From positions 20,442 to 84,441 of the forward strand of contig CAWCKT010000055.1 of NCBI GenBank assembly GCA_963796155.1: a stretch of DNA of 64,000 bases, given 5' to 3'. A program made the translations under genes and the position numbers. Source of the stretch: an uncultured Alphaproteobacteria bacterium (GTDB taxonomy: Bacteria > Pseudomonadota > Alphaproteobacteria > ATCC43930 > CGMCC-115725). The notes below the pieces were generated by a model. It had not been told where the DNA came from, did not search any database, and saw nothing but the letters and a program-made list of their open reading frames with translations. Of this stretch, positions 6,010-43,906 are shown piece after piece. Every line of letters begins with the position of its first letter. Position 1 is the first letter of the stretch.

Positions 6010-6063
6010 GAGCACAGCGTCCTGCCGGGACTCGATTGGCTCACCCTGCAAAAGGGAGGGGAC

Positions 6064-6750: not shown

Positions 6751-6797
6751 AATCATCAAGTCGAATAGGCTGGCAATCCTTTGCATCGCTCGACCGC

Positions 6798-24406: not shown

Positions 24407-26513
24407 AACCCGCGGGGACCCGGCAAGCCTCTCGATCCTCAGGGTCGCACCGGTCATCGCCCTCGCCGCGGCGCTGAACGCAGCCCCGCCCGCGCGCGCG
24501 GACGGGCCCCCCAACCCCCAGGATCTCGTCAAGGCCGAGCTCGTCGCAGAAACACCGTCTGTCGCTCCGGCGGCGACGCTGTGGGTCGACCTTCATCTCG
24601 CGATCAAGCCGGGTTGGCATGTTTATTGGCGCAATCCCGGCGATTCCGGATTGCCGACGACGATCGAATGGAAATTGCCGCCGGGTTTCTCGGCCGGCGG
24701 CATCTCGTGGCCGGTGCCGGAGCGTTTCGTGCAAGCGGGGATCGGCAATTACGGCTACGCCGGCTCGGCCGATCTCCTCGTTCCGATCCATGCCGCCAAG
24801 GAGCTCGCGGTGGGTGAGACGGCCATGCTCGGGGCCGAGGCGAGCTGGCTCGCCTGCGCCGATATTTGCATTCCCGGCGGCGCCAAGCTCTCCCTGAGCC
24901 TGCCCGTCGCCGCAGCGCCGGTCGCGCCCGATCCCCGCGCCGCGGCGCTCTTCGCCGCGGTCCGCCGGCGGTTGCCGCTTCCGGCCCCGTTCGAGAGCCA
25001 CTTTTTTGCGGGCGCCGGTGATTACCGTCTGCTGATTCCGGAGAGTGCTCTCGCCGGCCTGCGCGACCCGGCCGGGATGTTTTTCCCGAACGGCGATTCT
25101 CTGATCGACCACGCCGCCGCGCCCGTCACGAACCGCCGCGGCGACGGCCTCGAAATCGTACTGAAAAAGGCCACCGCGGCCGCCGCCGCGCCGGCGACCC
25201 TCGACGGCGTATTGGTGTTGCGCGGCGAGGACGGGGCCGAGCGTGCCTTCGACATCAGCGCCAATCCTGCCGCGGGGCTGCCGGCCGAGAATGGCCTCGC
25301 CTGGTGGCAAGCCCTGCTCCTCGCCTTTCTCGGCGGCGTCGTTCTCAACGCCATGCCGTGCGTGTTCCCGATCCTGTCGTTGAAGCTCCTGAGCCTCGCC
25401 AAGCAGGCGCATGGCCACCCCTCCGAGCAGCTCGGCCACGGGCTCGCCTATACGGCGGGGGTGCTGGCGAGTTTCGCGGCACTCGGCGGCGCGTTGCTGG
25501 CGCTGCGCACCGGCGGGCAAGCGATCGGCTGGGGCTTTCAGCTGCAAACGCCGGTCTTTGTCGCGCTGGTCGCCTATCTCCTCTTTGCGATGGGGCTGAG
25601 CCTCTCGGGCGTTGTTACCTTCGGGGCGGGTTTCGCCGGGGCCGGCGGACGGCTCGCCGGCCGGTCGGGGCTGACCGGCACGTTCTTTACCGGGGTGCTG
25701 GCAACGATCGTCGCGACCCCGTGCACCGCCCCCTTCATGGGCGCTGCCCTCGGCTTTGCGCTGATCGCGCCCGCTGCGATGGCAATCGGGATCTTTCTGG
25801 CACTCGGCTTCGGGCTCGCCGCGCCCTACCTCCTCGCCACCGTGACCCCCGGCTGGCAACGCGTGTTGCCGAGGCCGGGGGCGTGGATGGATCTGGTCAA
25901 GCAGCTGCTCGCCTTCCCGCTTTACGGCACGGTCGCCTGGCTCGTGTGGGTGCTGATCCAGGAGGCCGGACCGGGCGGTTCGCTGGCGGCGTTGTTCGGA
26001 TTGGTGCTGGTCGGCTTTGCCGTCTGGATCTTCGGGCGGACGCGGCTTTCGGCTCCTCTCGGACGCTCGCTAGGCGCCGGGCTCGCCCTCAGCGGCGCGG
26101 CCGCGGCAATCTTTCTTGCCGCGTCTCTCACGGCAACCGGGGGTCGGATGGCGAACGCGGCGTTGTCTGACAGGCTCGCCTACGAGCCGTTCACCGCGGC
26201 CCGGCTGTCGGCTCTCGAAGCTGCGGGCAAGCCGGTCTTTGTCAATCTGACGGCTTCCTGGTGCGTCACCTGTCTGATCAACGAACGCGTCGCCCTCGAC
26301 AGCGACGCGGTGCGCAATGCCTTCGCCGCACGCGGCATCGTCCCCCTCAAAGGCGACTGGACCAGCCAAAACCCGGAGATCACGGCTCTCCTGCAGCAGT
26401 TCGGGCGCAGCGGCGTTCCGCTCTATCTGCTCTATGGCGGCAAGGGCGAACCCGTTATCCTGCCGCAGATCCTGACTGCGGCGAGCGTGCTCGACGCACT
26501 CGGCAAGGTTTGA
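24396..26513 (+). CDS. DsbD/ScsB-family thiol:disulfide reductase (N-terminal DsbD-alpha-like, TM core, C-terminal thioredoxin)
   Basis: Probable GTG 24396 overlapping the tctC-like stop. HVYWRNPGDSGLPT. TM cysteines LNAMPCVFP and ATPCTAPFMG. C-terminal FVNLTASWCVTCLINE. Confidence 0.85.
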   Translation: MSSKTRGDPASLSILRVAPVIALAAALNAAPPARADGPPNPQDLVKAELVAETPSVAPAATLWVDLHLAIKPGWHVYWRNPGDSGLPTTIEWKLPPGFSAGGISWPVPERFVQAGIGNYGYAGSADLLVPIHAAKELAVGETAMLGAEASWLACADICIPGGAKLSLSLPVAAAPVAPDPRAAALFAAVRRRLPLPAPFESHFFAGAGDYRLLIPESALAGLRDPAGMFFPNGDSLIDHAAAPVTNRRGDGLEIVLKKATAAAAAPATLDGVLVLRGEDGAERAFDISANPAAGLPAENGLAWWQALLLAFLGGVVLNAMPCVFPILSLKLLSLAKQAHGHPSEQLGHGLAYTAGVLASFAALGGALLALRTGGQAIGWGFQLQTPVFVALVAYLLFAMGLSLSGVVTFGAGFAGAGGRLAGRSGLTGTFFTGVLATIVATPCTAPFMGAALGFALIAPAAMAIGIFLALGFGLAAPYLLATVTPGWQRVLPRPGAWMDLVKQLLAFPLYGTVAWLVWVLIQEAGPGGSLAALFGLVLVGFAVWIFGRTRLSAPLGRSLGAGLALSGAAAAIFLAASLTATGGRMANAALSDRLAYEPFTAARLSALEAAGKPVFVNLTASWCVTCLINERVALDSDAVRNAFAARGIVPLKGDWTSQNPEITALLQQFGRSGVPLYLLYGGKGEPVILPQILTAASVLDALGKV

Positions 26514-26530
26514 CCCTGATGGAGGTGATT

Positions 26531-27172
26531 ATGGGCAAGCTCGCTCCGACCATCGCCATGACAGCCGCGCTCGTCGCCGCTGTGGCGTTATCGACCGATC
26601 GCGCCACCGCGATCGACGCCGCCGCCGCCAAGCCGGGCGCCCCGGCGCCGGCCTTCAGCGCGCCGGATATCGCCGGCCGGACAATCAGTCTCGGCGACTA
26701 CGCCGGCAAGATCGTCATCCTCGAATGGACCAATGACGGCTGCCCCTTTGTCGGCAAGCACTACAACAGCGGCAACATGCAGGCGCTGCAACGCAAATAT
26801 ACCGGCGAGGGCGACGTCTGGCTGACCATCGCCTCCTCGGCGCCGGGCGAGCAGGGTTATGTGACGCCGGCCGACGCGAAGGCCGACCTCGCCCGCTGGC
26901 ATGCCGCGCCGACCGATTACCTGCTCGACCCGAACGGCGTGGTCGGCCGCCTCTACGATGCGCGGGCGACACCGACCATGGTCGTGATCGATCGCGACGG
27001 TAGCGTCGCCTACATCGGCGCCATCGACGACACGCCCTCGACCCGCCTCGCCGACGTCAAGACCGCCAAGAACTATCTCGTCGCGGCACTCGACGAGATC
27101 GCCGCCGGCAAGCCGGTCGCCGTCGCCGCCACCCCCGCCTACGGCTGCTCGATCAAGTACAAGACGAGCTGA
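26531..27172 (+). CDS. Periplasmic thioredoxin-fold (TlpA/redoxin-like) protein
   Basis: GGAGGTGA SD. Signal peptide. KIVILEWTNDGCPFVGKHY and ATPTMVVIDRDGSVAYIGAIDD. Confidence 0.8.
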   Translation: MGKLAPTIAMTAALVAAVALSTDRATAIDAAAAKPGAPAPAFSAPDIAGRTISLGDYAGKIVILEWTNDGCPFVGKHYNSGNMQALQRKYTGEGDVWLTIASSAPGEQGYVTPADAKADLARWHAAPTDYLLDPNGVVGRLYDARATPTMVVIDRDGSVAYIGAIDDTPSTRLADVKTAKNYLVAALDEIAAGKPVAVAATPAYGCSIKYKTS

Positions 27173-27178
27173 TTACCC

Positions 27179-27250
27179 TCAAATATACACCCCGCGCCCC
27201 GCCCTCGGGATAGCGAGTGCCCGCCGCGGCGCCGATCGGGATCGCGGCGG
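27179..27250 (-). repeat. 72-bp degenerate copy of the 3' end of the aldo/keto reductase gene (direct repeat of 35717-35790)
   Basis: Hand alignment gives 4 substitutions plus one 2-nt gap over 74 columns. On the minus strand it encodes ...IPIGAAAGTRYPEGGARGVY, versus IPIGAAAGTRYPEGGMRGVYI* in the intact gene. Confidence 0.8.
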
Positions 27251-28099
27251 CGCAGGATGAGGCCATCGCCCAGGCTCTTGGGCGGGGGCGTCCGACCCTC
27301 TCGGAGTCCGAGAGCAAAGAGCTGCTGGCCGCCTGGGGGGTGGGGAGTGCGCGCGAGCACCGGGCAAATTCTGCAGAGGAAGCCGTCGCGGCCGCAGAAG
27401 AGCTCGGGTTTCCGGTGGCTCTCAAGGTCGAGTTCGCCGGATATTCCGCACAAGACAGAGGCCGGGGTCGTTCGCCTGAACCTCGGCGATGCGGCACAAG
27501 TGCGAACGGCCTACGCCGAGATCCTGGCCAGTGCCAAGACCTATCTAAGTGCCCTCCCCCTCGATGGGGGAGGGTTGGGAGGGGGTGACCGTGCCAGTGG
27601 CAATCCATTCGGGCACCGGGCGCGGAATTCACCCCCACCCCGGCCCTCCCCCATCAAGGGGGAGGGAGCAGAGGCGGAAAATGCGATAGCGCCACAGGCC
27701 CGGATCATCGGCGTGTCGGTGCAGGAGATGGTCGGAGAAGGTGTCGAAGTCATCATTGGCGTCAATTGCGACCCGCAATTGGGCCCGGTGCTGCTGTTCG
27801 GCAGTGGCGGCGTGCTGGTCGAGGTCTACAACGATGTGGCCCTGCGGCGCTGCCCGATCTCACGCTCGGAAGCACGGGCCATGATCGCTGAGGTCAAAGG
27901 AGCCCGGTTGCTCCAGGGCTTTCGCGGACGGCCAGCGGCGGACCTCGCCGCACTCGCGGATACCCTGGTGCGCGTGTCGTCCCTCGCCACGCACCTTGAA
28001 GCACGCCTGGCAGAGTTGGACATCAACCCGCTCATGGTGCTGCCGTCAGCTCAGGGAGTGAAGGCGGTAGACGTCCTCGTCGTGTTGCGCGGCACATAG
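27240..28099 (+). pseudogene. C-terminal ATP-grasp part of an ADP-forming acetate/acyl-CoA ligase family protein; no N-terminus, frameshifted near 27430-27445, REP insertion inside
   Basis: Frame a reads LSESESKELLAAWGV...AEELGFPVALKV. Frame b reads SPDIPHKTEAGVVRLNLGDAAQVRTAYAEI...IIGVSVQEMV...VIIGVNCDPQLGPVLLFGSGGVLVEVYNDVALR...LAELDINPLMV. Confidence 0.7.
27551..27667. repeat. Nested palindromic REP-like element (two CCCTCCCCC/GGGGGAGGG hairpins flanking further inverted repeats)
   Basis: Stems 27552-27560/27566-27574, 27644-27652/27658-27666, 27581-27588/27629-27636 and GTGCC/GGCAC at 27591-27595/27612-27616. Translated through as ALPLDGGGLGGG...PSPIKGEG. Confidence 0.75.
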
Positions 28100-28307
28100 T
28101 GCTACACTTGGCTGAGAGCCGGACTCAAAAATTTGCAGAGCCTAATCGTCGGCGGCAGAGGACCGCTTTCGAAACCACTACGGCCGCTCAGCCTTGGCGG
28201 CCGGAGCCGCTCTTGATGCCCCGTACCGGCCAATAGCCGTGTCACCGTCGATTCCGGTGGATCCTCGACAGCGGTCATTAGCGGCATCGAGCTGCTGACG
28301 CGCTCAG

Positions 28308-31300
28308 TCAATCGGAAACTTCGGCGAGCGAGGCGGCGGCGCGCCGCTCGAAGGTGACGGCGCCCTGCCGGCGCGCAACCTCGCGGGCGGTTGCGAAGGC
28401 GCGCCGGGCCCCGGCCTTGTTGCCGCGATCCTGCGCCAGCAGGCATTCGCCGCGCAGGCGCCAAATTTCGGCCAGATAATAGCCGACATCCGGCTCCTCG
28501 TTGGCGCCGAGCGCGCGATCGAGCATCGCCGCGGCGCGGTCGTGCCCGCCGGCGGCCAGCATCAGTTCGCCGGCGATACCGAGGAGATATTGCACGTTGG
28601 GCCCCGCGGCAGCCGCCTGTGCTATTTCCTCGACCAGCTCGGCGCTCGCCGCCAGTCCCGCGCCGCCCGCCCAGACCAGCAGCAGCCCCGCGCCGGCCCG
28701 GTAGGGCGGAAACCCGTATTTGTCGGCAATGGCGATCGTGCGCTCCGCCGTCTGCCCGGTCAGGTCGCCATTACCGGCCATCTGATGGGCCATTGCCGCG
28801 TTATAGAGGGCGTGGACGAGGCTGAACGGGTGATCGAGCGCGTCGCCGAGCGCGATCGAGTATTCCGCCTCGCGCCGGACCAGCTCGAGGTCGTCCGAAA
28901 GCGCGGCCATCAAGCCGAGGATCGCGTGCGCGCAAACGCCAGGATCATGGCCGCCATAAGCCGGGCCCAGATGCCGATGCCGCGCCATATCGTACGTCTC
29001 GACGCCGATGCGACCGAAATCCCGGGCGACCGCGATGTCGCCGCGGAAAAACGCGGTCGACCAGCGGCAATGATAGGCTTCGAGCAGAAGATCGCCGTCA
29101 CCCGAGCGCTGCGCCAGCGCCACGAGCTGGTCAGCCTGATCGCGGGCAACGGCCGTCTTGCGGGCAAGATTGGCGTTGAGCCACAGTCCCCATTTCGCCT
29201 TGTAGGCGGCGGCGCCGTCCTGCACATCGTCACCCAACTCGGCGGCGCGGCGATAGGTTGCCTCGACCTCCGCGCTTTGCGCCCCGGCGACGATCGTCTG
29301 CGCCGGCCCGAGCTTCAGCAGCAACGCCAATTGCCGGCGCCGGCGCGCGCCCGGGTCGGCCAGCCGCTCGGCCTCGTTCAGGCCTGCCGAAAAATGCCCG
29401 ATCGCTTCGTGATAGGCCGAGCGGGCGGCGGCGCGATCCCCCGCCCGCTCGCGGTAGTCGCAAGCGGGCGCCGTGAGGCCCGCCTCGCCGTAGTGGTGGG
29501 CCAGCAATTCCGGCTCGTTCGCCGCCGTTTCGGGAAACTTCTCTTCGAGTGCGCGACCGATGCGGGCGTGCCAGTCGCGCCGTCGCGCCAAGAGCAGGCT
29601 TTCATAAGCCGCGTCGCGCACGAGTGCGTGCTTGAAACTGAAACCGCGTTCCAGGCCGCGGCCTTCAGGAAAGACGATCCCGGCCGCGCCGAGCTTGGCG
29701 AGCGCGGCATCAAGTTCGGCCTCGGGTCTGCGGGCAACCGCGGCAAGCAGCGCAAACGCGAACTGCCGGCCGATAACGGCCGCGATCTGCGCCACCTCCC
29801 GCGCCTCGCCGAGTCGGTCCAGCCGGGCCATCAGCGAATCCTTCAGCGTCGCCGGCACCGCCGCGGCGTCCTCGCCCGCGGTCTCCATAACGCTCTTCGT
29901 CAATTCCTCGACAAACAGCGGCACGCCATCGCTCTTGGCGGCGATCGCGGCGACGGTTTCTGCCGGCAGCCCGCGCGACGCGGCAACTCCTGCGACCAAT
30001 TGCGCGCATTCCGCGCGGCCGAGCCGGCCCAGTGTCAGCATTGTCGCATGCGGCCGCGCCAGCCATGGCGGGGCAAAATCCGGCCGCGCGGTCACCGCCG
30101 CGAGCAGGCGGGCGGGGCCGATGCTGTCGATCAACTGTGTCAGCAATTCGAGCGTCGTGGCATCGATCCACTGAGCGTCTTCGAGGACCAGGAGTACCGG
30201 GTCGGTTTTGCCGAGCCGGGCGATCTCGTCGACCAGCAAGGCAATTGTCGCCGCCTTGCGCTGCGCCGGCGTCAGTGCCGAGGGGATCGCCGGAGCCCCG
30301 GGGATCGACAGCAGCTCCGCCAGTAACGGAACGGCGGTCGCATCCACCGCCGCGCGCTGCGCAAACAATGTGCCGAGCTTCTCGATGCGCACGGCAGGCG
30401 CGTCGGCGGCGGCAAAGCGCGCGGCGCGCGCCAGATGATGGATCACCGGGTAGAGCGCGCTGTCGCTGTGATAGGGCGAGCATTGCAGGTGGATGCGGGT
30501 ATGCAGCTCGTCCGCGAGAGCTTCCTGTAACTCCTCGATCGCCCGCGATTTGCCGATCCCGGCCTCGCCGATCACAGTGACGACCTGCCCCTCGCCCGAT
30601 CGCGCCAGACGCCAGCGGTCAAGCAGCAAGCCCATTTCGTTAGCGCGGCCGATCAGCGGCAGCGCGCCGCCGGTGCGGATCGCGGCGAAGCGGCTGGCAA
30701 CGGACGCCTCGCCCACCACCCGCCAGGCCGGCACCGGGCGCGCGAACCCCTTCATTTCCTGCGCGCCGATCGGTTCGAGTTGAAAGATGCCGCCGAGCAG
30801 ACGCTGCGTCGCTTCGCTGACCAGAATGGTGTCGGGCGCCGCGAGCGCTTGCAGCCGCGCTGCGAGATTGGGGGTTTCGCCGATGATGCTGTGCTCGCGC
30901 GCCGCACCAGCGCCGAAGATCTCGCCGACGACGACGAGACCCGTGGCGATGCCGACCCGCGCTTGCAGCGGCTTGCCGTCGGCGCTGGCGATGCCCCCGA
31001 TGTCCGTCAGGATGCCGAGCGCGGCGCGAACGGCCCGCTCCGCGGCATCCTCGAAAGCCTGCGGAAAGCCGAAATAGGCCAGCACGCCGTCGCCCAGGAA
31101 CTTGGCGACAAAGCCGCCAAAGCGGCCGATCGCGCCAGCTGCGGCGTCCTGGTAGTGCCGGATCAGCGGCCCCAGCAGCTCGGGATCGACCGCGCTCGAC
31201 AGTGCTGTCGAACCGACCAGATCGCAGAACAGCACCGTGACCTGCCGTCGCTCGGCCTCGGCCGCGCCCGCCGGTGCAACGCTATCGGCGGGGGTCGGCG

Positions 31301-31508
31301 CAAGATTGGACGTCGTCCGGGTGGAGTCTACCGTGCGCTCGGCGATCGCTCTGAGCAGCCGCCGCCGATTGCCGAGCGAGACGCCGAGCTCTGCCAGATC
31401 CTGTTCTGTCAGCTCGGGCAGAATGTCGAGATCGACGTCGTTTGCCGCGAACGCGTCCGCGTATTGCTCGCAGTTGTTCGCACGCAGCCAGGCGCGAAGA
31501 TCGCTCAT
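28308..31508 (-). CDS. 1066-aa multidomain protein: SAM-like N-terminus, class III adenylate/guanylate cyclase, P-loop STAND-type NTPase (AAA_16-like), TPR-like helical repeats
   Basis: LRAWLRANNCEQYADAFAANDVDLDILPELTEQDLAELGVSLGNRRRLLRAI (SAM-like). ERRQVTVLFCDLVGSTAL...FLGDGVLAYFG...GETPNLAARL (cyclase). VVTVIGEAGIGKSR (Walker A). A long Ala/Leu-rich repeat region runs to the C-terminus. Confidence 0.85.
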   Translation of the reverse strand: MSDLRAWLRANNCEQYADAFAANDVDLDILPELTEQDLAELGVSLGNRRRLLRAIAERTVDSTRTTSNLAPTPADSVAPAGAAEAERRQVTVLFCDLVGSTALSSAVDPELLGPLIRHYQDAAAGAIGRFGGFVAKFLGDGVLAYFGFPQAFEDAAERAVRAALGILTDIGGIASADGKPLQARVGIATGLVVVGEIFGAGAAREHSIIGETPNLAARLQALAAPDTILVSEATQRLLGGIFQLEPIGAQEMKGFARPVPAWRVVGEASVASRFAAIRTGGALPLIGRANEMGLLLDRWRLARSGEGQVVTVIGEAGIGKSRAIEELQEALADELHTRIHLQCSPYHSDSALYPVIHHLARAARFAAADAPAVRIEKLGTLFAQRAAVDATAVPLLAELLSIPGAPAIPSALTPAQRKAATIALLVDEIARLGKTDPVLLVLEDAQWIDATTLELLTQLIDSIGPARLLAAVTARPDFAPPWLARPHATMLTLGRLGRAECAQLVAGVAASRGLPAETVAAIAAKSDGVPLFVEELTKSVMETAGEDAAAVPATLKDSLMARLDRLGEAREVAQIAAVIGRQFAFALLAAVARRPEAELDAALAKLGAAGIVFPEGRGLERGFSFKHALVRDAAYESLLLARRRDWHARIGRALEEKFPETAANEPELLAHHYGEAGLTAPACDYRERAGDRAAARSAYHEAIGHFSAGLNEAERLADPGARRRRQLALLLKLGPAQTIVAGAQSAEVEATYRRAAELGDDVQDGAAAYKAKWGLWLNANLARKTAVARDQADQLVALAQRSGDGDLLLEAYHCRWSTAFFRGDIAVARDFGRIGVETYDMARHRHLGPAYGGHDPGVCAHAILGLMAALSDDLELVRREAEYSIALGDALDHPFSLVHALYNAAMAHQMAGNGDLTGQTAERTIAIADKYGFPPYRAGAGLLLVWAGGAGLAASAELVEEIAQAAAAGPNVQYLLGIAGELMLAAGGHDRAAAMLDRALGANEEPDVGYYLAEIWRLRGECLLAQDRGNKAGARRAFATAREVARRQGAVTFERRAAASLAEVSD

Positions 31509-31632
31509 CCCGTTCAGCTTCCCAGACCGCAGCCCGGTGCGCCTCAGAAGCGCTTCAAGCCATATATCAGATTTGAGGCGATCCGGCGCACCGAAATCGC
31601 CGCGAGCCGGTGATCTCCAGTGTCACCGGCCG

Positions 31633-32018
31633 TCAGCTCGGGTGTGTGCCGAACATGATCCAGCCGCCATTGCTTGGCGTGGTGAATGCGGCCAGCGCAG
31701 TCTCTGCCCGAACCCTGACCTGCCGTGCGCCGGCCGTGCCGCGGAGCTGCTCTATGCTGTCGGTGTACATGGCCGTACGGGTGCGCCCGTTCCCCAAATT
31801 GCCGCCGCTCGAAGAGAACGGGTGCGGTCCCTCGACCCTGATATCGCCCGCGTAGAACGCGAAGGCATCGCCGCGTTTGACGCCGTGCCACTGGAAGGCC
31901 TCCCAGGAAGAACTGCGCCATCGGTGCATAGCCGTCGTAAGGATTGAATATATCGACGTCCTCGGGCCCAAGCCCGGCACCCTCGTACATTCTCCTGGCG
32001 GCGCGGTCGGTCCAGTCC
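31633..32018 (-). pseudogene. Thiolase-like (SCP2/nsLTP-type) C-terminal fragment, copy T1 (no MITE, internal frameshift, no N-terminus)
   Basis: WTDRAARRMYEGAGLGPEDVDIFNPYDGYAPMAQFF, then in another frame EAFQWHGVKRGDAFAFYAGDIRVEGPHPFSSSGGNLGNGRTRTAMYTDSIEQLRG...GGWIMFG and a stop at 31633. Confidence 0.65.
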
Positions 32019-32085
32019 GGCATCGTGTCCCACGCCAAGTTCGTGTAATGTCAATCCGGAAAACGGGATCGCTCAACCAACCATC

Positions 32086-32313
32086 ATGGATCATCCTCGC
32101 ATCACGCTTGCGCCTGACGTGCTCGCCGGCAAACCCGTCATACGCGGCACGCGACTTTCCGTCGAATTCGTGATCGGCCTGATGGCCGACGGATGGAGCG
32201 AAGCCGATATTTTGGAGAATTATCCAGGTATTACGCACGACGACATCCTCGCGTGTCTCGCCTATGCTCGCGATACACTGAGCTCGGAGAAAGTGTTTCC
32301 GAGCGCGGCCTGA
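32086..32313 (+). CDS. DUF433-family protein (putative antitoxin)
   Basis: 75 aa. ITLAPDVLAGKPVIRGTRLSVEFVIGLMADGWSEADILENYPGITHDDILACLAYA is the characteristic DUF433 pattern. Confidence 0.7.
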   Translation: MDHPRITLAPDVLAGKPVIRGTRLSVEFVIGLMADGWSEADILENYPGITHDDILACLAYARDTLSSEKVFPSAA

Positions 32314-32315
32314 TT

Positions 32316-32669
32316 TTGCGTTTTCTCGCCAACGAGAATTTTCCTGCCGCGGCGGTCGCCTCCCTGGCGGCAGCTGGGCACGATATCGTGTGGGTCAGAA
32401 GCGTTGCGCCAGGCATGCCCGACCCTGAGGTGCTGGCATGGGCGGCGCGCGAGCATCGAATCTTGCTGACCTTTGACAAGGATTTCGGCGAACTGGCCAG
32501 AGGATCGGCACTGCCGCGCACCTGTGGTGTCGTGTTGCTACGGATGCCGATGCCAAAGCCGGAGGAGGCGGGACTACGGCTGGCCGCGCTGATCACCGCT
32601 CGCGAGGATTGGGTCGGCAATTTCTCGGTCATCGAGCCCGGCCGCGTTCGGATGCGACCGCTCGGGTAG
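32316..32669 (+). CDS. DUF5615-family PIN-like protein (putative toxin partner of DUF433)
   Basis: Probable TTG 32316, 3 nt after the DUF433 stop. LRFLANENFPAAAVASLAAAGHDIVWV...EHRILLTFDKDFGEL matches the Mut7-C/DUF5615 pattern. Confidence 0.65.
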   Translation: MRFLANENFPAAAVASLAAAGHDIVWVRSVAPGMPDPEVLAWAAREHRILLTFDKDFGELARGSALPRTCGVVLLRMPMPKPEEAGLRLAALITAREDWVGNFSVIEPGRVRMRPLG

Positions 32670-32726
32670 TCTGCGGCCTAGTTAAACGGTAGGGGGCAAG
32701 GGATCAGGCAGACCTCGACTTTACCT

Positions 32727-33094
32727 CGGGTCATTGCTGGTTTTGTCGAAGGCTTCAAAGAGGCCGATAAATTTCTCGAAGTGGCAAAGCTCGCCGCGGA
32801 GCGCGGCAAGCCGATCGTGCTCATAAAAATCGGGCGTTCGGAACTGGGAGCCCGGGCGGCACGCTCGCATACTGCAGCGCTGACGGGTGCCGATGCCCGG
32901 TGGGATGCGATCTTTGCCCAATACGGGGTGATCCGGGTCCAGGATTACGACGAACTCCTGGAGACGGCACACCTCCTGGCCCACACCCCCGAGCCCCTAG
33001 TGCCCGGCATCGCGGTGGTATCCCACTCGGGCGGCATCAGCTCGCTCACCGCCGACATGTGCGGTCAGGCCGGTCTCGATCTGCCGCCGCTCGA
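32727..33094 (+). pseudogene. Internal (CoA-ligase/flavodoxin-like) fragment of an ADP-forming acyl-CoA ligase family gene
   Basis: VIAGFVEGFKEADKFLEVAKLAAERGKPIVLIKIGRSELGARAARSHTAALTGADARWDAIFAQYGVIRV...GIAVVSHSGGISSLTADMCGQAGLDLPPL. No start or end of its own. Fused at 33083-33094 to thiolase fragment T2. Confidence 0.65.
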
Positions 33095-33535
33095 GCAGAA
33101 CGGGTGCGGTCCCTCGACCCGGAATCGCCCGCGTAGAACGCGAAGGCATCGCCGCTTTTGACGCCGTGCCACTGGAAGGCCTCCAGGTAGAATTACGTCA
33201 TGATTGCATAGCCGTCGTAAGGATTGAATATATCGACGTCCTTGGGCCAAGCCCGGCACCCTAGTGGTAGAAACCAGACACTTGACTCCGTTCTTGTCAT
33301 CCCGGCGGCAGGCCGGGATCTACAGTCTGGCCTGGATACCGGCCTTCGCCGGTATGACGGATAGGCGGGTGCGATTCGTCAGGTGCTATCCACTATTACA
33401 TTCTCCTGGCGGCGCGGTCGGTCCGGTCCTCGATCTCGTCCAAATCGGCCTGTGTGGTGCGCTGCCTGAAATTGTGCTGTGAGTGATTGAGCACATAGGC
33501 CGGCCTTTGCCGCATGTCGCGGGCGCGCTCGGCAG
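33083..33535 (-). pseudogene. Thiolase-like fragment, copy T2, interrupted by a MITE
   Basis: Nucleotide homology to T1/T3 on both sides of 33264-33393, by hand alignment (more diverged than T1 vs T3). Confidence 0.6.
33264..33393. mobile_element. 130-bp MITE, copy 1, flanked by TA/TA
   Basis: Termini GTGGTAGAAACC...GGTGCTATCCAC (imperfect inverted repeat). Internal hairpins CCCGGC..GCCGGG and ATACCGGC-cttc-GCCGGTAT. Absent from the same site in copy T1 (caccctcgtacatt). Confidence 0.7.
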
Positions 33536-33595
33536 CACCGCCAATTGCTTCGGCACAGGATTTGGCGTATTCGTACTGTGAATTACGGAGTTTGC

Positions 33596-33874
33596 ATGGA
33601 AATGGTCCGCATGACCGAAGCCGAGCTGCAACAAGGCTTTCGAGCCTTGGCAGGCCGCGCCCGCCGCGAGCCGGTGACGATCACCACCCCCGCCGGCACC
33701 ACCCCGGACGGCCGCGATGAATTCGTGGTGTTGTCGGCCGAGGAATATGCACGCCTCAAACGGCGCGATCGACGCGTCGGACTTACCGAGGAGCTTCCCG
33801 AGGAGTGGGTCGAAGCCGTGCGCAACGCCAAGGTGCCGGACGAATTCGCCGCCCTCGACGCCGAGCTGAAATAG
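33596..33874 (+). CDS. Phd/YefM-like antitoxin (orphan)
   Basis: MEMVRMTEAELQQGFRALAGRARREPVTITTP...DEFVVLSAEEYARLKRRD is an antitoxin-like N-terminal fold pattern. It is followed 8 nt later by a toxin stub. Confidence 0.55.
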   Translation: MEMVRMTEAELQQGFRALAGRARREPVTITTPAGTTPDGRDEFVVLSAEEYARLKRRDRRVGLTEELPEEWVEAVRNAKVPDEFAALDAELK

Positions 33875-33881
33875 CTCGTGC

Positions 33882-33980
33882 GTGCCGCTGCCCGCGCCTG
33901 TTCCGGGCCTTGTCATCCGCTATAGCTATTTGTGGCACAGCGAGCACCCGGCGGGGCGCGAGGAGGTGCGGCTTAGGTAG
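33882..33980 (+). pseudogene. N-terminal 32 codons of a PemK/MazF-like toxin, truncated
   Basis: VPLPAPVPGLVIRYSYLWHSEHPAGREEVRLR*. The GLVIRYSYLW.SE...GREEG opening is recalled from small toxin-like proteins of Rhizobiales. No continuation exists in any frame before the convergent gene at 34016. Confidence 0.4.
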
Positions 33981-34015
33981 AGGAAAGCAGCGCAAAAGGG
34001 GACGGTTTGGGGGGA

Positions 34016-34417
34016 TCAGCGCTCTTTGAGGCGCTTCAACCCGTCAAGGAAGCGGGAGACCTCAGCGCGCGTCCAGCTCGCCCCCTCGTTCCAGAACTCC
34101 AGCAGCGCGTCGCGGTTGAGACCGACCCACGCGGAGACCAGCGGAGCGCGCTGTCTGACGACGTGGTCCGGCAGGCTGTTCGCCACGACCCGTGGCGGGT
34201 CAGCGATCGTCACCGAGCAGCTCGGCTGCGCTTCCCCTGCCCGGCCATCGAAGTACTTCACGCGCGGCCCGTGCCTGCCCATGCGTGTCGATACGAAGAT
34301 CGTCCCGGGGATGCCGGTATCCTCCTCCGGGAGGTTCGCCATCTCGACCAGGTCCTCGTCCGCCAGCTCGTCGGCTAGCGGCGCGTCCGCGGGCACATTG
34401 GTGACGGTCATCGGCAT
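34016..34417 (-). CDS. Hypothetical protein, 133 aa
   Basis: Clean ORF with non-repetitive composition (acidic N-terminus, GTIFVSTRMGRHGPRVKYF core). No family recognised and no obvious SD. Confidence 0.45.
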   Translation of the reverse strand: MPMTVTNVPADAPLADELADEDLVEMANLPEEDTGIPGTIFVSTRMGRHGPRVKYFDGRAGEAQPSCSVTIADPPRVVANSLPDHVVRQRAPLVSAWVGLNRDALLEFWNEGASWTRAEVSRFLDGLKRLKER

Positions 34418-34504
34418 GGGAGAACCAAAATAACGTCGTGGTCTCTAAAAGTAAAGGTCGGCCCGGCGCAGTCGGAACCGCCAAGGCGCCTTCACCCGGT
34501 GGGT

Positions 34505-35165
34505 CCGTCAGCTCGGGATTTGCCGAACATGATCCAGCCGCCACTGCTTGGCGTGGTGAATGCCGCCAGCGCAGTCTCTGCCCGCACCCTGACCTGCCGT
34601 GCGCCGGCCGTGCCGCGGAGCTGCTCTATGCTGTCGGTGTACATGGCCGTACGGGTGCGCCCGTTCCCCAAATTGCCGCCGCTCGAAGAGAACGGGTGCG
34701 GTCCCTCGACCCTGATATCGCCCGCGTAGAACGCGAAGGCATCGCCGCGTTTGACGCCGTGCCACTGGAAGGCCTCGCCACCACCCTCCCCGGAAGAACT
34801 GCGCCATGGGTGCATAGCCGTCGTAAGGATTGAATATATCGACGTCCTTGGGCCCAAGCCCGGCACCCTAGTGGTAGAAACCAGACACTTGACTCCGTTC
34901 TTGTCATCCCGGCGCAGGCCGGGATCTACAGTCTGGCCTGGATACCGGCCTTCGCCGGTATGACGGATAGGCGGGTGCAATTCGTCAGGTGCTATCCACT
35001 AGTACATTCTCCTGGCGGCGCGGTCGGTCCAGTCCTCGATCTCGTCCAAATCGGCCTGCGTGGTGCGCTGCCTGAAGTTGTGCTGTGAGTGATTGAGCAC
35101 ATGGACCGGCGACTGCCGCATGTCGCGGGCGCGCTCGGCAGTCGTGAACAGATACGCGGCGGATG
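34505..35165 (-). pseudogene. Thiolase-like fragment, copy T3, interrupted by a MITE and frameshifted
   Basis: 3' part differs from T1 at 3 positions over ~250 nt (hand alignment). Upstream part encodes AAYLFTTAERARDMRQSPVHVLNHSQHNF...EIEDWTDRAARRMY. Confidence 0.65.
34871..34999. mobile_element. 129-bp MITE, copy 2, flanked by TA/TA
   Basis: Same element and same insertion site as 33264-33393. By eye they differ by one 1-nt indel and one substitution. Confidence 0.7.
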
Positions 35166-35212
35166 TGTTGACTGGCCGGTGTACTGCGGCTTCGGCTTTA
35201 ATGTCGGACACT

Positions 35213-35433
35213 ATCGCGGCGCCTGGCGCATCGACCACGGCTGGGAGGGGCTCGGCCTCGACCTGCCGATGGTCCATCGTCACTATGACGTGTTCGAGAT
35301 CGCCCCCGAGCGGATGGCCTGGTTCGGGAAGAGGACCGTGCAATTCGTCATTGGCGTCGAGGGTCACATCGAGAGCCTGGCCGTGCCGCTCGAGCCGGCG
35401 GTGGCGCCGATCACATTCCGGCGCCTGCCGTAG
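35213..35433 (+). pseudogene. C-terminal DUF3471-like fragment of a serine hydrolase/beta-lactamase-family gene
   Basis: YRGAWRIDHGWEGLGLDLPMVHRHYDVFEIAPERMAWFGKRTVQFVIGVEGHIESLAVPLEPAVAPITFRRL resembles the C-terminal extension of class-C-like esterases. There is no catalytic domain upstream. Confidence 0.45.
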
Positions 35434-35716
35434 CCGCCGATACTGGCGCCCCCTTGACAGAGGTCGGACCCAGCAACCATATATGTTATAGCAATTGCTT
35501 AAGGAGAAAATGATGCGCAAAACCGGGTGCCAAATTTCCCTGCCAAATGCCCCAAACCGCAGCGAAATTCCGCTGCCGGCAGGCTCGGCCAAATAGAGAG
35601 ATGGTGCTGATATATCGAAGATTTTTTGCGTCGAGAGGGCGTTTTCGGGGGCTGAAAAGCGTTTTTTCCCTGCCGTCAGGGAAAACGGACTTCGTCCCCT
35701 CTCCGCGGCGCGCCGG

Positions 35717-36718
35717 TCAAATATACACCCCGCGCATCCCGCCCTCGGGATAGCGGGTACCGGCGGCGGCGCCGATCGGGATCGCGGCGGAGATGCGGTC
35801 GATGTCGCCCGGGCTCAGCCGGATGCGCAGCGCGCCGACATTCTCCTCGAGCCGAGCTATCTGCTTGGTGCCTGGGATCGGGACGACGTCCGGTCCTTGC
35901 GCCAAGAGCCAGGCGAGTGCCAGCTGCGCCGGGGTGCAGGCCTTCTCCGCGGCGATCGCCTCGATGCGTTCGACCAACGCGCGGTTCTTGGCGAAATTGT
36001 CGCCCATGAAGCGCGGATGACGGCCGCGCGTGTCGCCCGCGTCGAGATGGGCGAGATCGGGCACGACCCCAGCTAAGAGGCTGCGGCCGAGCGGCGCATA
36101 AGCGAAAAATGAAATGCCGAGGTCGCGGGTCAGCTCGCGCGTCTCGGTCGCCTCCTCGCGATAGAGCAGCGAGAATTCCATCTGGACCGCGGCGAGCGGG
36201 TGGGTCGCATGGGCCCGGCGGATACGCTCCGGCCGCGCCTCGCACAGCCCGAGAAAACGGACCTTGCCCTGCTCGACGAGCCGGGCCATCGCGCCGACCG
36301 TCTCCTCGACCGGCACTGCCGGATCGACCCGGTGCTGATAATAGAGGTCGATGACCTCGACCCCGAGCCGCTTCAGGCTCGCCTCGCACGCTTGCGCCAC
36401 GTAGGCCGGGCTGCCGTCGACGCCGTTGGCGCCGCCGGGGCGCCGCGTCTGGCCGAATTTGCTGGCGATCACGATGCCGTCGCGCCGGCCCCTCAGCGCC
36501 CGGCCGAGCAGCTCCTCGTTCTGACCCCAGCCATACATGTCCGAGCTGTCGAAATGATCGACGCCGAGATCGATCGCCCGGTGGATCAGCGCGATCCCTG
36601 CCCCCTCGTCGCTCGTTCCATATACCCCGGACAGCGACATGCAGCCGAGGCCGATCGCCGAGACCTCCGGGCCGGCCTTGCCGAGCCTGCGCCGTTGCGT
36701 GACCATCGTCTCGCTCAT
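35717..36718 (-). CDS. Aldo/keto reductase
   Basis: 333 aa. LGKAGPEVSAIGLGCMSLSGVYG, FDSSDMYGWGQNEELLGRAL, IDLYYQHRVD, VPIPGTKQIARLEENV. Confidence 0.9.
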   Translation of the reverse strand: MSETMVTQRRRLGKAGPEVSAIGLGCMSLSGVYGTSDEGAGIALIHRAIDLGVDHFDSSDMYGWGQNEELLGRALRGRRDGIVIASKFGQTRRPGGANGVDGSPAYVAQACEASLKRLGVEVIDLYYQHRVDPAVPVEETVGAMARLVEQGKVRFLGLCEARPERIRRAHATHPLAAVQMEFSLLYREEATETRELTRDLGISFFAYAPLGRSLLAGVVPDLAHLDAGDTRGRHPRFMGDNFAKNRALVERIEAIAAEKACTPAQLALAWLLAQGPDVVPIPGTKQIARLEENVGALRIRLSPGDIDRISAAIPIGAAAGTRYPEGGMRGVYI

Positions 36719-39383: not shown

Positions 39384-42300
39384 TTATTCGGCTGGCTGAT
39401 GATGATGGATGACCGCCGGTCGCGGATAGTTGCCGGCGGGTACCAGGGCGTGGTCGTGGGCGATGCCCGCCGGCCGGCCACGGCGTCCGGCGAGCCAGTC
39501 GGAGAGGCGGTCCATGTAAATGTAGGTGACCGGGATCGTAAACAGGGTCAGCGCCTGCGACACGACGAGCCCGCCCACGACGGCCACGCCCAAGGGCTGG
39601 CGCAATGATGCACCGGCGCCGAGCCCGAGTGCGATCGGCAGGATGCCAAAGATCGCCGCCATTGTCGTCATCATAATCGGGCGAAAGCGCAGTACGGCTG
39701 CCTCGACGATCGCCTCTTCCGCCGATTTATGCTCGTGCCGGCGGCGCTCGATCGCGAAGTCGATCATCATGATCGCGTTTTTCTTGACTATGCCGATCAG
39801 CATGATCAGCCCGATGATCGCGATGACGCTCAAATCAAAGCCGAAGAGCTGCAGGCACAGCAGCGCGCCGACGCCGGCCGGCGGCAAGCTCATCAGGATT
39901 GTGACCGGGTGAATGAAGCTCTCGTACAAGACGCCGAGCACGATGTAGACGGCAAAGATCGCCGCCGCGATCAACAGGGGCTCGGTCGATAGCGAGCTCT
40001 CGAACGCCTGGGCGGTGCCCTGGAACGAAGTTTCGATGGTCTTTGGCAGCCCCATCTCCGCCGTCGCCTGGTCGATCCGGTCGACCGCCTGGCCGAGCGA
40101 GGTCCCGGGTGCCAGATTGAATGATAGGGTCGCTGCGGGAAATTGGTCCTGATGATTGACCGATAGCGCGGTCGTGGTCGGCACCAGCCGGGCAAACTCG
40201 CTGACTGGGACCAGTTGCCCGCCCGAACCGTGGACATAAAGACGCGACAGGGCCGAGATATCTTTCTGGTATTGCGGCTCCAGCTCCATCACGACGTGAT
40301 AGGTATTGAGATTACCGTAGACTTCGGTCACGTAGCGCTGGCCGAAGGCGTCGTAAAGAGTGGTCTCAATGGTGCCGGGATTGACGCCGACGCGCGTGGC
40401 GAGATCGCGGTTGATGTCGATCTTCAATTGTGGGCTGGCGAGTTGCATGTCGCTGGCGACATCCTCGATGCCGGGGATGGTCTTCAGCTTGTCTTCGACC
40501 TTTGGCGCCCATTGTTGCAATTCAGCGAGATCGGTGTCCTGCAATGTGTACTGGTATTCGGTTGCAGTTAGCCGCCCGCCGACCTGGATCGTTTCGAGCG
40601 GCTGCAGGTAGGTGTGGATGCCGGGAACCTGGGCCAGCTTTGGCCGCAGTCGGTCGATGATCTGCTGTTCGCTCGCCTTGCGCTGATCCCAAGGCTTCAG
40701 CGAGATGAACAGGCGGCCGGTGTTGTTGCCCTGACTGGCGCCGCCGCCGATCGCCGACCCGACCGACACGACGTCGGGATCGCGCATAATTACTGCCGCG
40801 GCGCGCTGCTGCAGATCGGCCAGGCCCATGAACGAAACGTCCGGAGAACCCTTGGTGAATCCGAAGATGATGCCGGTGTCCTCTTCGGGGATGAAGCCCT
40901 TCGGGATCTCGACGACGAGCCAGCCGGTCAACGCGATCAGGGCGAGATTGAACAGCATCGCCCAAAGCCGAATTTTCAGCACCCCGCGCAAGGTCCGCTG
41001 ATAGCCGTGTAGGGTGCGTTCAAAAGCCCATTCGCTCCATCGATAGAGGCGCCCGTGCTTGACCCGCCGCGGATCGACGAGAAACAGCGACGCCATCATC
41101 GGCGACAAGGTCAGCGCGATGATCGCGGACAGCACGATCGCGACCGAAACGGTCACGCCGAATTCGCGGAACAGACGGCCAACGATCCCGCCCATGAACA
41201 GGACCGGGATGAAGACCGCGATCAGCGAGATCGTGATCGACACGATCGTAAAGCCGATCTCGCCGGCGCCCTTTAATGCCGCGGTCAGAGGATCATCGCC
41301 CTGTTCGAGATAACGGTAGACGTTTTCAAGCATGACAATCGCATCGTCGACGACGAGGCCGACAGCAAGGGTCAGGCCCATCAGCGAGAGGTTGTCGAGG
41401 CTGTCGCCAAAGAAATAGAGGATCGGAAAGGTCCCGAGCAACGACAGCGGCACCGTGACGCTCGGGATCACCGTCGCCCAAAAACTACGCAGAAACAAAA
41501 AGATGACGAGGACGACGAGGACGACCGTGAAGAGCAGGGTCAGCTTCACATCGGTAAAGCTGGCGCCGATCGACAGCGAGCGGTCGTTGACAACGCTGAC
41601 CTTGATCGAGGGCGGCATCCCGGCCTCGAACGCCGGCAGGTGGGCCTTTATGTTGTCGACGACCTGCAAGGTGTTCGACCCCGCCTGCCGCCAGATGCCG
41701 ATCATCTCGCCGATGTGGTTGTTGACCCAGTCTAGCTGCAGCGGGACATCGGACCCAACGACGACCCGGCCGATGTCGCTGATGCGCACCGGCGCGCCGT
41801 TGCGGTACGCGACGATGACGCGGCTCAACGGGCCGGTCTGCAACAACTGCCCGTTGGCGCCGATCTGATAGGCCTGCTCCGAGCCCTGCAACGCGCCGAC
41901 CGGCTCTTCGAGGGTATTGTTGGTAATCGCCGTCGCGACATCGTCGATGCCAATGCTGCGCGCCGCCATCTCCGTCGGGTTTAGCTGCACCGTCGGCGCA
42001 TATTTCTGCTCGCCGAAAATGACGACCTGCGCGATGCCCGGCAGCATCGAGACGCGCTGGGCGAGGTTCAAATCGGCGTATTGGTCGAGCTCGGGCAGGC
42101 TCATGACGTTCGAGGTCAGCCCGAGAATGAATACCGGCTTTTCGGCGGGATTGACCTTTTTGTAGGTCGGCGGATTGGGCAGTTCTTTTGGCAGCACCCC
42201 GCTGGCGGCGTTGATCGCCGCCTGGACATCGCCGGCCGCACCGTCGATGTCGCGCGACAACGCGAATTGCAAGGTAATGACGCTGCTGCCCTCAATATTG

Positions 42301-42548
42301 TACGAGGTGATCTGCGAGATACCGGGAAGGCTGGCGAATTGCCGCTCGAGTGGCTGCGCCACCGACGAGGCCATGATTTCGGGGCTCGCACCCGGCAGGC
42401 TGGTGGTGACGCTGATCGTCGGGAAATCGACGTTCGGCAGAGCCGCGACCGGCAGCAGGTTGTAGCCGATGATCCCGCCGACAAAGAGTGCTGCCATCAA
42501 CAACGCGGTAGCAATCGGGCGCCGGATAAAAGGCTCCGAGATGCTCAT
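39384..42548 (-). CDS. RND efflux permease (MdtB/MdtC-like)
   Basis: Track ORF trimmed to ATG 42548 (MSISEPFIRRPIATALLMAALFVGGIIGYNLLPVAALPNVDFPTI). VVDDAIVMLENVYR. 12-TM layout. The ATGA overlaps the adaptor stop. Confidence 0.95.
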   Translation of the reverse strand: MSISEPFIRRPIATALLMAALFVGGIIGYNLLPVAALPNVDFPTISVTTSLPGASPEIMASSVAQPLERQFASLPGISQITSYNIEGSSVITLQFALSRDIDGAAGDVQAAINAASGVLPKELPNPPTYKKVNPAEKPVFILGLTSNVMSLPELDQYADLNLAQRVSMLPGIAQVVIFGEQKYAPTVQLNPTEMAARSIGIDDVATAITNNTLEEPVGALQGSEQAYQIGANGQLLQTGPLSRVIVAYRNGAPVRISDIGRVVVGSDVPLQLDWVNNHIGEMIGIWRQAGSNTLQVVDNIKAHLPAFEAGMPPSIKVSVVNDRSLSIGASFTDVKLTLLFTVVLVVLVIFLFLRSFWATVIPSVTVPLSLLGTFPILYFFGDSLDNLSLMGLTLAVGLVVDDAIVMLENVYRYLEQGDDPLTAALKGAGEIGFTIVSITISLIAVFIPVLFMGGIVGRLFREFGVTVSVAIVLSAIIALTLSPMMASLFLVDPRRVKHGRLYRWSEWAFERTLHGYQRTLRGVLKIRLWAMLFNLALIALTGWLVVEIPKGFIPEEDTGIIFGFTKGSPDVSFMGLADLQQRAAAVIMRDPDVVSVGSAIGGGASQGNNTGRLFISLKPWDQRKASEQQIIDRLRPKLAQVPGIHTYLQPLETIQVGGRLTATEYQYTLQDTDLAELQQWAPKVEDKLKTIPGIEDVASDMQLASPQLKIDINRDLATRVGVNPGTIETTLYDAFGQRYVTEVYGNLNTYHVVMELEPQYQKDISALSRLYVHGSGGQLVPVSEFARLVPTTTALSVNHQDQFPAATLSFNLAPGTSLGQAVDRIDQATAEMGLPKTIETSFQGTAQAFESSLSTEPLLIAAAIFAVYIVLGVLYESFIHPVTILMSLPPAGVGALLCLQLFGFDLSVIAIIGLIMLIGIVKKNAIMMIDFAIERRRHEHKSAEEAIVEAAVLRFRPIMMTTMAAIFGILPIALGLGAGASLRQPLGVAVVGGLVVSQALTLFTIPVTYIYMDRLSDWLAGRRGRPAGIAHDHALVPAGNYPRPAVIHHHQPAE

Positions 42549-43798: not shown

Positions 43799-43906
43799 TC
43801 GAACTCACCTTTGACGTGCCTCACCAGTAAACAGCACGTCGCCACAAAGGGTTCTTAGGCGAGCGCCTCCCGGGACATCCCGGCGCGGGCGGCAGGGCCG
43901 GGCGGC

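Follow-up and report, generated by a model that had tools for sequence, protein, structure and literature searches.

Genomic islands and integrative and conjugative elements (ICEs) that encode an integrase insert into the 3' end of a tRNA or protein gene, restoring the end of the gene at the flanking attL and attR sites. Displaced gene ends are also known from 'orphan' 3' modules, which follow polymorphic toxin genes (cdiA-CT/cdiI, rhs), and from complex class 1 integrons, in which the 3'-conserved segment is duplicated around ISCR1. Homology-facilitated illegitimate recombination on uptake of foreign DNA was reportedly described for naturally competent bacteria in 2002, by de Vries and Wackernagel in Acinetobacter and by Prudhomme et al. 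in pneumococcus. Here we analyse a stretch of 64,000 nucleotides from an uncultured alphaproteobacterium (contig CAWCKT010000055.1, positions 20,442 to 84,441; hereafter the window), in which an accessory interval of about 8.5 kb is bracketed by an intact aldo/keto reductase (AKR) gene and a direct copy of its 3' end, designated AKR'. We tentatively favour the view that AKR' is not an att site but a scar, left when DNA was inserted at the end of the reductase gene by a duplicative process that needed no recombinase.

A class named 'insertion with long target duplication' has been described for restriction-modification (RM) systems (Nobusato et al. 2000, Gene 259:99; Furuta, Abe & Kobayashi 2010, NAR, PMC2853133). 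The criteria were a direct duplication of >30 bp, an insert of <20 kb and no other mobile element; in the cases of Furuta et al. 2010 (PMC2853133) direct target duplications of 46-420 bp flank addiction modules without mobility genes and in many cases span the start or stop codon of the flanking gene, the mechanism being unresolved. The window shares with this class a 72/74-bp repeat spanning the AKR stop codon, an 8.5-kb insert, no mobility genes, toxin-antitoxin cargo and repeat lengths that vary between events. However, the described cases have RM cargo and an empty site in a sister genome, neither of which was found here, so that membership in the class is unproven; the cargo of the window is a mosaic of broken housekeeping genes with toxin-antitoxin and STAND cassettes, and at one border of the insert a microhomology joint can be demonstrated. 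The resemblance is one of outcome only.

With homology-facilitated illegitimate recombination the locus shares extended homology on one side (AKR and its syntenic right flank), a 5-nt GC-rich joint on the other, and an insertion of several kb without a recombinase. The two joints described below, CGGCG and ACCGG, both lie within the range of short (3-10 nt) GC-rich microhomology by which such events are recognised. That process is reported to have been shown experimentally, whereas here the donor and the direction of transfer are inferred.

The duplicated gene end and its borders

The two copies of the reductase end (27179-27250 and 35717-35790) have the same orientation and are 91.9% identical in a 74-column MAFFT alignment that contains four substitutions and one 2-nt gap, exactly as an earlier note on this DNA had counted by hand; the computed similarity that the note had called for is clear (E=1.9e-22, BLASTN comparison of the window with itself). 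The homology starts at the AKR stop codon (TCA on the + strand) and breaks off sharply at 27250/35790, 72/74 bp into the gene. All close homologues of the reductase are 333 aa long, as is the reductase of the window itself, for which an exact-protein look-up found nothing on record.

Two further strains carry the same structure. L170 (ENA ERZ25039506, a 153.6-kb contig) was reached via the exact 133-aa protein encoded in the interval and is 97% identical to, and collinear with, window positions 23682-44599; L172 (ERZ25039587, 249.7 kb) was reached via the exact TlpA protein and is about 96% identical. Common to all three are the junction J0, between the tlpA-like gene and AKR', and the two inner joints J1 and J2.

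At J1, AKR' passes into ACS-beta', a fragment of the gene for the ATP-grasp subunit of an ADP-forming acyl-CoA synthetase (ACS). The window reads ...GATCGCGGCGG|CGCAGGATGAGG... from AKR' to ACS-beta, the corresponding site in the intact ACS-beta genes of L161, L168 and L169 reads ...CACGGCGC CGCAGGATG..., and AKR itself goes on ...GCGGCGG AGATGCGG; the joint is thus a 5-nt microhomology, CGGCG, which connects AKR' to ACS-beta codon ~95. On the right side the true novel joint is J2 at 35180/35181, where thiolase codon ~262 meets a beta-lactamase-like remnant through the microhomology ACCGG.

The DNA between J2 and the reductase is found in relatives as well. L162 (87.5% nucleotide identity; AKR 92% identical in amino acids) is collinear with the window from 52120 through the AKR stop codon to 35240, and after a stretch of about 340 bp specific to L162 the collinearity resumes over 35176-35239; L175 is collinear with the window down to 35562. 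Since 35181-35716 is shared wholly or partly with L162 (35240-35716) and L175 (35562-35716), it represents the old AKR flank and not a recent insert. No second copy of the AKR end was seen in the available DNA of L162 and L175.

The interior is of chromosomal origin. The best homologue of ACS-beta' outside the window's contig was found in L161, an NCBI metagenome-assembled genome (MAG), in which intact ACS-alpha and ACS-beta genes (+) face a thiolase-like gene (-) across a run of cassettes; the same locus occurs in L168 and L169. After the thiolase gene on the - strand, L168 has DUF35 and then a thiamine pyrophosphate (TPP) enzyme, and L161 has two other genes between the thiolase and the TPP enzyme. 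ACS-beta' is 92-93% identical in nucleotides to the intact genes of L161, L168 and L169, ACS-alpha' is 94.6% identical to L161 9515-9886, and the surroundings of the 133-aa open reading frame (ORF), 33948-34466, correspond to L168 10350-10870 at 95%. Because the fragments of the window (ACS-beta', its downstream tail, ACS-alpha', three thiolase' copies and the 133-aa region) match Stellaceae ACS/thiolase loci with 92-97% nucleotide identity, the 'island' is largely a decayed piece of an ordinary chromosomal locus.

Signs of mobility or foreign origin were sought in several ways. Pfam revealed no recombinase among the main and candidate ORFs, tblastn of the whole window with phage integrase, IS91, IS1595, DDE_1, DDE_3 and GIY-YIG proteins taken from related loci gave no match (these families only), and the 64 kb contain no tRNA gene. 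RM genes are absent from the interval, its addiction-type cargo being a DUF433/DUF5615 pair and a weak Phd-like ORF. The earlier note had held that everything in the interval differs from its flanks and had proposed a comparison of k-mer composition. The accessory and decayed content does set the interval apart, but no compositional shift was found, the tetranucleotide signature lying within +/-1 SD of the rest of the window, and 35181-35716 is, wholly or in part, conserved AKR flank. A tblastx comparison of the island with all loci returned uninformative noise in this high-GC DNA.

The relatives of the reductase are MAGs of soil Stellaceae (Alphaproteobacteria). In about 35 species-level relatives the genes on the 5' side of AKR (BNR-repeat protein, HpcH aldolase) are syntenic, and in the orthologous loci homology generally ends no more than ~20 bp from the stop codon, the downstream region being a synteny break in many lineages. 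Most of these ~35 relatives have a lactonase and a glutathione S-transferase gene downstream, and none has tlpA; the closest AKR homologues (93% in amino acids; L174, L175) also have different downstream content without tlpA. On the tlpA side, 80 metagenome loci share only the dsbD-tlpA block (24431-27172), with homology ending at the tlpA stop; 58 of them extend 0.6 kb or more beyond that point, and none of the 58 has an AKR gene there. AKR orthologues hold the duplicated segment once: among 86 AKR loci scanned, a second copy of the gene's own end was present only in L170, to which the later-fetched L172 has to be added, and both belong to the strain cluster of the window.

The four substitutions between the copies are all synonymous, at third codon positions, 3 nt apart. 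Polarised by about 45 orthologous sequences, three of the changes occurred in the left copy and one is a derived change in the functional right copy; the chance that 3/3 left-copy changes fall at third positions under neutral decay is p ~0.04. This hints that the left copy may come from a once functional allele or may be a conversion patch of a coding paralogue. Between the window and L170 the right copies do not differ, and BLAST identities for L172 are the same as for the window, consistent with an unchanged right copy. The left copies differ: that of L172 has all four substitutions and no indels, that of the window all four and a 2-nt deletion, and that of L170 only one of the four, with the same 2-nt deletion and a further 1-nt deletion. 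Such a reticulate pattern points to gene conversion or inter-strain recombination; the four substitutions are probably ancestral, and the left copy of L170 was likely gene-converted. The idea that synonymy of all four changes reflects selection on the left copy seemed refuted by L170 and became, with L172, only suggestive at the p value given. Two derived bases, missing from most compared sequences including the closest (L162, L163-166), are common to the left and right copies, which are therefore closely related and, by these bases, each other's closest relatives.

Explanations for the repeat

In the course of events that we tentatively favour, DNA of a closely related strain would have carried AKR with its old downstream flank (the D element and the beta-lactamase remnant) and a scrambled piece of the ACS/thiolase locus. 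With the transfer in this presumed direction, the AKR side of the incoming DNA would recombine by homology, and the far end, at ACS-beta codon ~95, would join the resident AKR illegitimately, through 5 nt of GC-rich microhomology 72-74 bp before the stop codon, in the manner of homology-facilitated illegitimate recombination. The precise enzymology is likewise presumed; the same product would be expected from a circularised fragment that integrated through one crossover. In either case the former terminal 72 bp of AKR would be left stranded beside the supposed former neighbour tlpA, with the complete AKR 8.5 kb away. That the interior went on changing is shown by the comparison of strains: recombination among its internal repeats and with other strains brought cassette swaps, loss, gain, triplication of the thiolase fragment and insertion of a miniature inverted-repeat transposable element (MITE).

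This model accounts for four observations: the direct orientation of the copies, a sharp inner border that lies in a broken gene, an outer border that falls on the stop codon, and substitutions of the coding type. The position of the outer border would follow if the copies stem from two alleles in different neighbourhoods, which have nothing but the coding sequence in common, as is seen among orthologues.

Several points weigh against the insertion model. It requires that tlpA and AKR were once adjacent, and the empty site (tlpA-TGATTACCC joined straight to a full AKR gene), which the earlier note had also proposed to look for in relatives, turned up neither among ~90 AKR loci nor among the 58 tlpA loci that were informative, and the interval is present in all of the three closest strains. 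This is the chief weakness of the model. Outside the strain cluster the closest relatives have only ~86-88% DNA identity, so that intermediate states between 88% and 96% are unsampled. Microhomologies of 5 nt are weak evidence in DNA of 67% G+C, the copies differ at only four informative sites, and conversion, as seen in the reticulate left-copy pattern, blurs both dating and the assignment of alleles.

A rearrangement within the genome, replicative or duplicative, is rather unlikely but has to be considered in two versions. In the first, 72 bp would have been inserted from the nearby AKR end by microhomology-mediated template switching (of the type of microhomology-mediated break-induced replication or fork stalling and template switching, MMBIR/FoSTeS) while the tlpA flank was joined to the ACS-beta fragment; in the second, 27251-35790 would have been duplicated in tandem and most of the first copy then deleted. 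Either would explain the short microhomology at both inner joints equally well. The self-comparison of the window revealed many other local segmental duplications of 92-99% identity in the region, which, together with the native composition, the mutual closeness of the two copies by shared derived bases and the failure to find either a donor or an empty site, speaks for a local origin. On the other hand, the outer border lies exactly on the AKR stop codon without microhomology to the tlpA flank, which would here be a coincidence, and the three left-copy changes are all synonymous third-position ones. The tandem version needs two events in addition to the coincidence at the stop codon.

The earlier note's own preference was site-specific integration into the gene end; in full, this would mean that an element bearing a mimic of the AKR 3' end integrated there (attL 27179-27250, attR 35717-35790) and later lost its integrase and most of its genes. 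As in islands and ICEs with an integrase, an accessory, strain-variable interval lies between direct repeats that include the 3' end of an intact gene; here their outer border is at the stop codon, and the interval holds a toxin-antitoxin pair and a STAND gene. The synteny break downstream of AKR in many lineages also speaks for this model. We nevertheless consider this origin improbable. Neither a recombinase, a transposase relic nor a tRNA gene was detected in the searches described above, and the sequences inside the supposed att sites are a chromosomal gene broken at codon ~95 with microhomology on the left and an ancestral flank common to L162 and L175 on the right. The interior comes from a chromosomal locus of relatives, the composition is native, no empty site was found among the loci surveyed, and the absence of a duplicated AKR end from every other lineage among the 86 AKR loci gives no sign of reuse of the site. 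Analogous repeats of ACS-beta and thiolase ends vary in length and border, unlike a fixed att core. What stands of the note is its description of an accessory and decayed island between copies of the AKR 3' end, to which hypervariability should be added, and not the integrase mechanism; the alternative that it mentioned, in which the repeat results as a side effect of local rearrangements, agrees better with the evidence. The duplicated gene end probably marks an insertion or rearrangement at the end of the AKR gene.

Chance similarity or an assembly artefact, for which only the GC-rich composition could be adduced, has a negligible probability, given the E value within the window and the identical junctions in two independent assemblies from other samples (L170, L172).

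Features and variation of the interval

The features of the window and the comparable loci are compiled in the table.

Table. Features of the window and of comparable loci in related strains and genomes
Feature	Sequence	Position	Strand	Details
tlpA-like periplasmic thiol:disulfide oxidoreductase (redoxin)	window	26531..27172	+	Pfam AhpC-TSA/Redoxin; last gene of the conserved dsbD-tlpA block 24431-27172
Spacer TTACCC (junction J0)	window	27173..27178	.	6 nt from tlpA stop to AKR' stop codon; identical in L170 and L172
AKR' (left repeat copy)	window	27179..27250	-	72-bp relic of the last 74 bp of AKR; 2-nt deletion near the stop codon; MAFFT, BLASTN, three-strain comparison
ACS-beta'	window	27251..28100	+	3' two-thirds (from codon ~95) of the ATP-grasp subunit of ADP-forming ACS; frameshifted near its start; Pfam ATP-grasp_5
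REP (repetitive extragenic palindrome)-like palindrome (inverted repeat I2)	window	27552..27666	.	in frame inside ACS-beta; encodes ALPLDGGGLGGG...PPPRPSPIKGE
ACS-beta downstream tail	window	28101..28237	+	137 nt; conserved in window, L170, L168, L169 and over a shorter stretch in L161, before divergence; left homology arm of cassette slot
Cassette with SAM-adenylate/guanylate cyclase-AAA_16 (STAND) gene	window	28238..31595 (gene 28308-31508)	-	gene intact; Pfam; occupies the cassette slot 28238-31595
thiolase' copy 1	window	31596..32030	-	residues ~308-438, 3' end of SCP-x-type thiolase-like gene, with ~40 nt of downstream sequence
DUF433 + DUF5615 PIN-like, toxin-antitoxin-like pair	window	32086..32669 (DUF433 32086-32313)	+	Pfam; in L170; 95-nt relic in L172
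ACS-alpha'	window	32725..33107	+	C-terminal 127 codons of CoA-binding/Succ_CoA_lig subunit; Pfam Succ_CoA_lig, tblastn; displaced downstream of ACS-beta'
thiolase' copy 2	window	33070..33535	-	split by ~130-nt MITE-like insert 33266-33396
Weak Phd/YefM-like antitoxin ORF	window	33545..33874	+	Pfam E=0.004, below cut-off; no recognisable toxin partner
133-aa conserved hypothetical protein	window	34016..34417	-	90% cluster with 499 members; exact protein also in L170
thiolase' copy 3	window	34505..35180	-	residues ~264-438; same MITE-like insert at 34873-34998
AKR downstream flank	window	35181..35716	.	beta-lactamase/DUF3471-like remnant (to 35433, +) and ~200-nt 'D' intergenic element (35500-35698, minus orientation; nhmmer)
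AKR, intact	window	35717..36718	-	333 aa; full-length Pfam Aldo_ket_red; right repeat copy 35717-35790
Cassette slot	L170	reverse complement 4669-7545		same slot as in window; HxlR, FAD-binding and DSBA genes; L170 is without 34979-35157
Cassette slot	L172	11571-13372		no STAND gene, no DUF433/DUF5615 pair (95-nt relic only); second ACS-beta' copy bracketing a 245-aa + HTH_3 cassette
ACS-beta-end array	L161	10885-13744		three copies, second 104 bp (95% to first), third 256 bp (88%); around FitA/PIN module and HpcH+glyoxalase
ACS-beta-end array	L168	1314-5919		182-bp and 1026-bp copies after HpcH, glyoxalase and MqsA-like gene
ACS-beta-end array	L169	10956-13363		173-bp copy after IS1595 and UPF0175/DUF3368 module

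The seven gene fragments reported in the earlier note were recovered as AKR', ACS-beta', ACS-alpha', the three thiolase' copies and the beta-lactamase-like remnant, and Pfam agreed with its SAM/cyclase/STAND giant protein. Of the two toxin-antitoxin-like modules, one corresponds to the DUF433/DUF5615 pair, but the other shrinks to the weak Phd/YefM-like match. The 133-aa ORF, on the contrary, is not the orphan it was taken for, as its cluster is large and L168 encodes a 97% identical protein. An Rfam scan of 27-36 kb gave only spurious, sub-threshold microRNA matches on the palindrome.

The slot that holds the STAND gene in the window is bounded by the conserved ACS-beta tail and by a short sequence downstream of the thiolase' stop, and contains other genes in L170 and L172. 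A 3.5-kb contig, L171 (ERZ25039474), matches, with 98.8% identity, the STAND cassette that lies between the ACS-beta stop and thiolase fragment 1. As cassettes were swapped between repeated fragments, the interval is a hot spot of recombination, in which the internal repeats act as homology arms. Thiolase' copies 2 and 3 arose by local duplication, since both hold the same MITE-like insertion, of ~126-131 nt (…GGTAGAAACCAGACACTTGACTCCGTTCTTGTCATCCCGGCG…), which the intact thiolase genes in L161 and L168 do not have.

The STAND protein (1066 aa) carries a SAM domain at its N-terminus and, after it, a class III cyclase, AAA_16 and a TPR-like tail. From the cyclase to the C-terminus it gives a partial match to NCBIfam TOMM_kin_cyc ('TOMM system kinase/cyclase fusion') of 554 bits, which does not reach the cut-off of 706, and SAM takes the place of the kinase; PADLOC returned generic PycC cyclase-domain matches only. 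The palindrome in ACS-beta' corresponds to a Gly/Pro-rich insert of ~45 aa (ALPLDGGGLGGG...PPPRPSPIKGEG) in the ACS-beta protein, which is present in the full-length homologues P0002, P0003 and P0025 and absent from P0060 and P0066; it is a repeat element tolerated as a protein insertion.

The D element in the AKR flank (window 35500-35698) was also located at L091 5438-5645, L082 5729-5930 and 142-326, and L162 11033-11234, and is present in L084, L092, L150, L098, L097, L093, L170 and L175, with two copies each in L082 and L084. It comprises a hairpin (CCGCTGACGACAGCGG) between T and A runs, a promoter-like TTGACG-N17-TATnAG and three GGCAGCGGAATTT motifs resembling sigma-54 promoters. In 11 metagenome relatives it lies straight after the tlpA stop, in the clade of the window after the AKR stop. 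An inversion of the whole interval, which would move the element from one place to the other in inverted orientation, was rejected, because D, which is missing between tlpA and GYD in L167, appears to behave as a small inserted unit, either MITE-like or a regulatory module, and because it occurs twice in L082/L084 and beside AKR in L162/L175, where no second AKR-end copy was seen. A link to the AKR neighbourhood of the L027 type (DAO, beta-lactamase, thiolase) was likewise dismissed, its genes having no homology to the fragments of the window.

The surroundings of the locus are also variable. Both flanks of dsbD-tlpA in the window's strain cluster differ from those in all ~80 metagenome relatives; upstream (window 24425-24431) lies TctC in the window and ROK/DUF2272 in L167 and L084. 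It seems that the two-gene block has itself been relocated. On the other side of AKR, 39384-43900, with an AcrB-type RND pump and adjacent sequence, is present in L170 and absent from the otherwise collinear L162, L163-L165 and L174, and by this comparison is another lineage-specific insertion.

Arrays of gene ends in the Stellaceae

The intact ACS/thiolase loci show repeated 3' ends of their own. In L161, L168 and L169, 3' fragments of ACS-beta measure 94, 104, 173, 182, 256 and 1026 bp and are 88-97% identical; in the array of L161 divergence is greatest in the outermost copy. Repeated thiolase ends surround toxin-antitoxin modules, both in L161 and in the window. The cassettes bracketed by fragments of either gene are FitA/PIN, UPF0175/DUF3368, HpcH+glyoxalase, MqsA-like and IS1595, mostly toxin-antitoxin modules. 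The left borders of the fragments differ every time, several with short overlaps, and no recombinases were found in the arrays; such variable lengths and borders fit illegitimate joints and not a fixed att core. Apart from the case with IS1595, the ACS-beta arrays look like repeated 'insertion with long target duplication' with toxin-antitoxin cargo.

As with orphan toxin modules and ISCR1 integrons, displaced gene 3' ends accumulate as incoming DNA recombines with a gene's conserved portion, and homologous integration of a linear or circular intermediate duplicates a segment. Unlike in those systems, the displaced ends belong to metabolic genes (ACS-beta, thiolase, AKR), of which they are near-identical copies, and not to variable toxin tips, and the window contains no ISCR or IS91. 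The AKR case can be regarded as a new example of an event of a known type at a hot spot of recombination.

We put forward, as a conceivable though speculative generalisation, that cassettes are captured in this Stellaceae lineage without recombinases at the 3' ends of convergent genes, each capture leaving a 3'-end copy of variable length. Capture of this kind may build nested arrays (gene, cassette, 3' fragment, cassette, older 3' fragment) with toxin-antitoxin modules as the commonest cargo. Four to five genomes have such nested arrays of 3' fragments at ACS-beta and thiolase, and AKR provides a single case.

For the annotation of genomes the locus teaches that a duplicated gene end around accessory genes alone is no proof of an integrase-type island, as comparison of the inner borders with relatives reversed the reading. 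It also constitutes a well-resolved natural recombination hot spot, in which both illegitimate joints can be read at the nucleotide level and in which three almost identical strains are distinguished only by the cassettes lying between the repeated gene-end fragments. The part most worth following up is the lineage-wide nesting of gene-end fragments around toxin-antitoxin cassettes. If such arrays are general, they would provide a mechanism for the unexplained insertions with long target duplication and for the spread of addiction modules that lack mobility genes of their own. General capture, if true, would extend Kobayashi's long target duplication from restriction-modification to toxin-antitoxin modules, with homology-facilitated illegitimate recombination as the mechanism and the addiction modules protecting the arrays from deletion.

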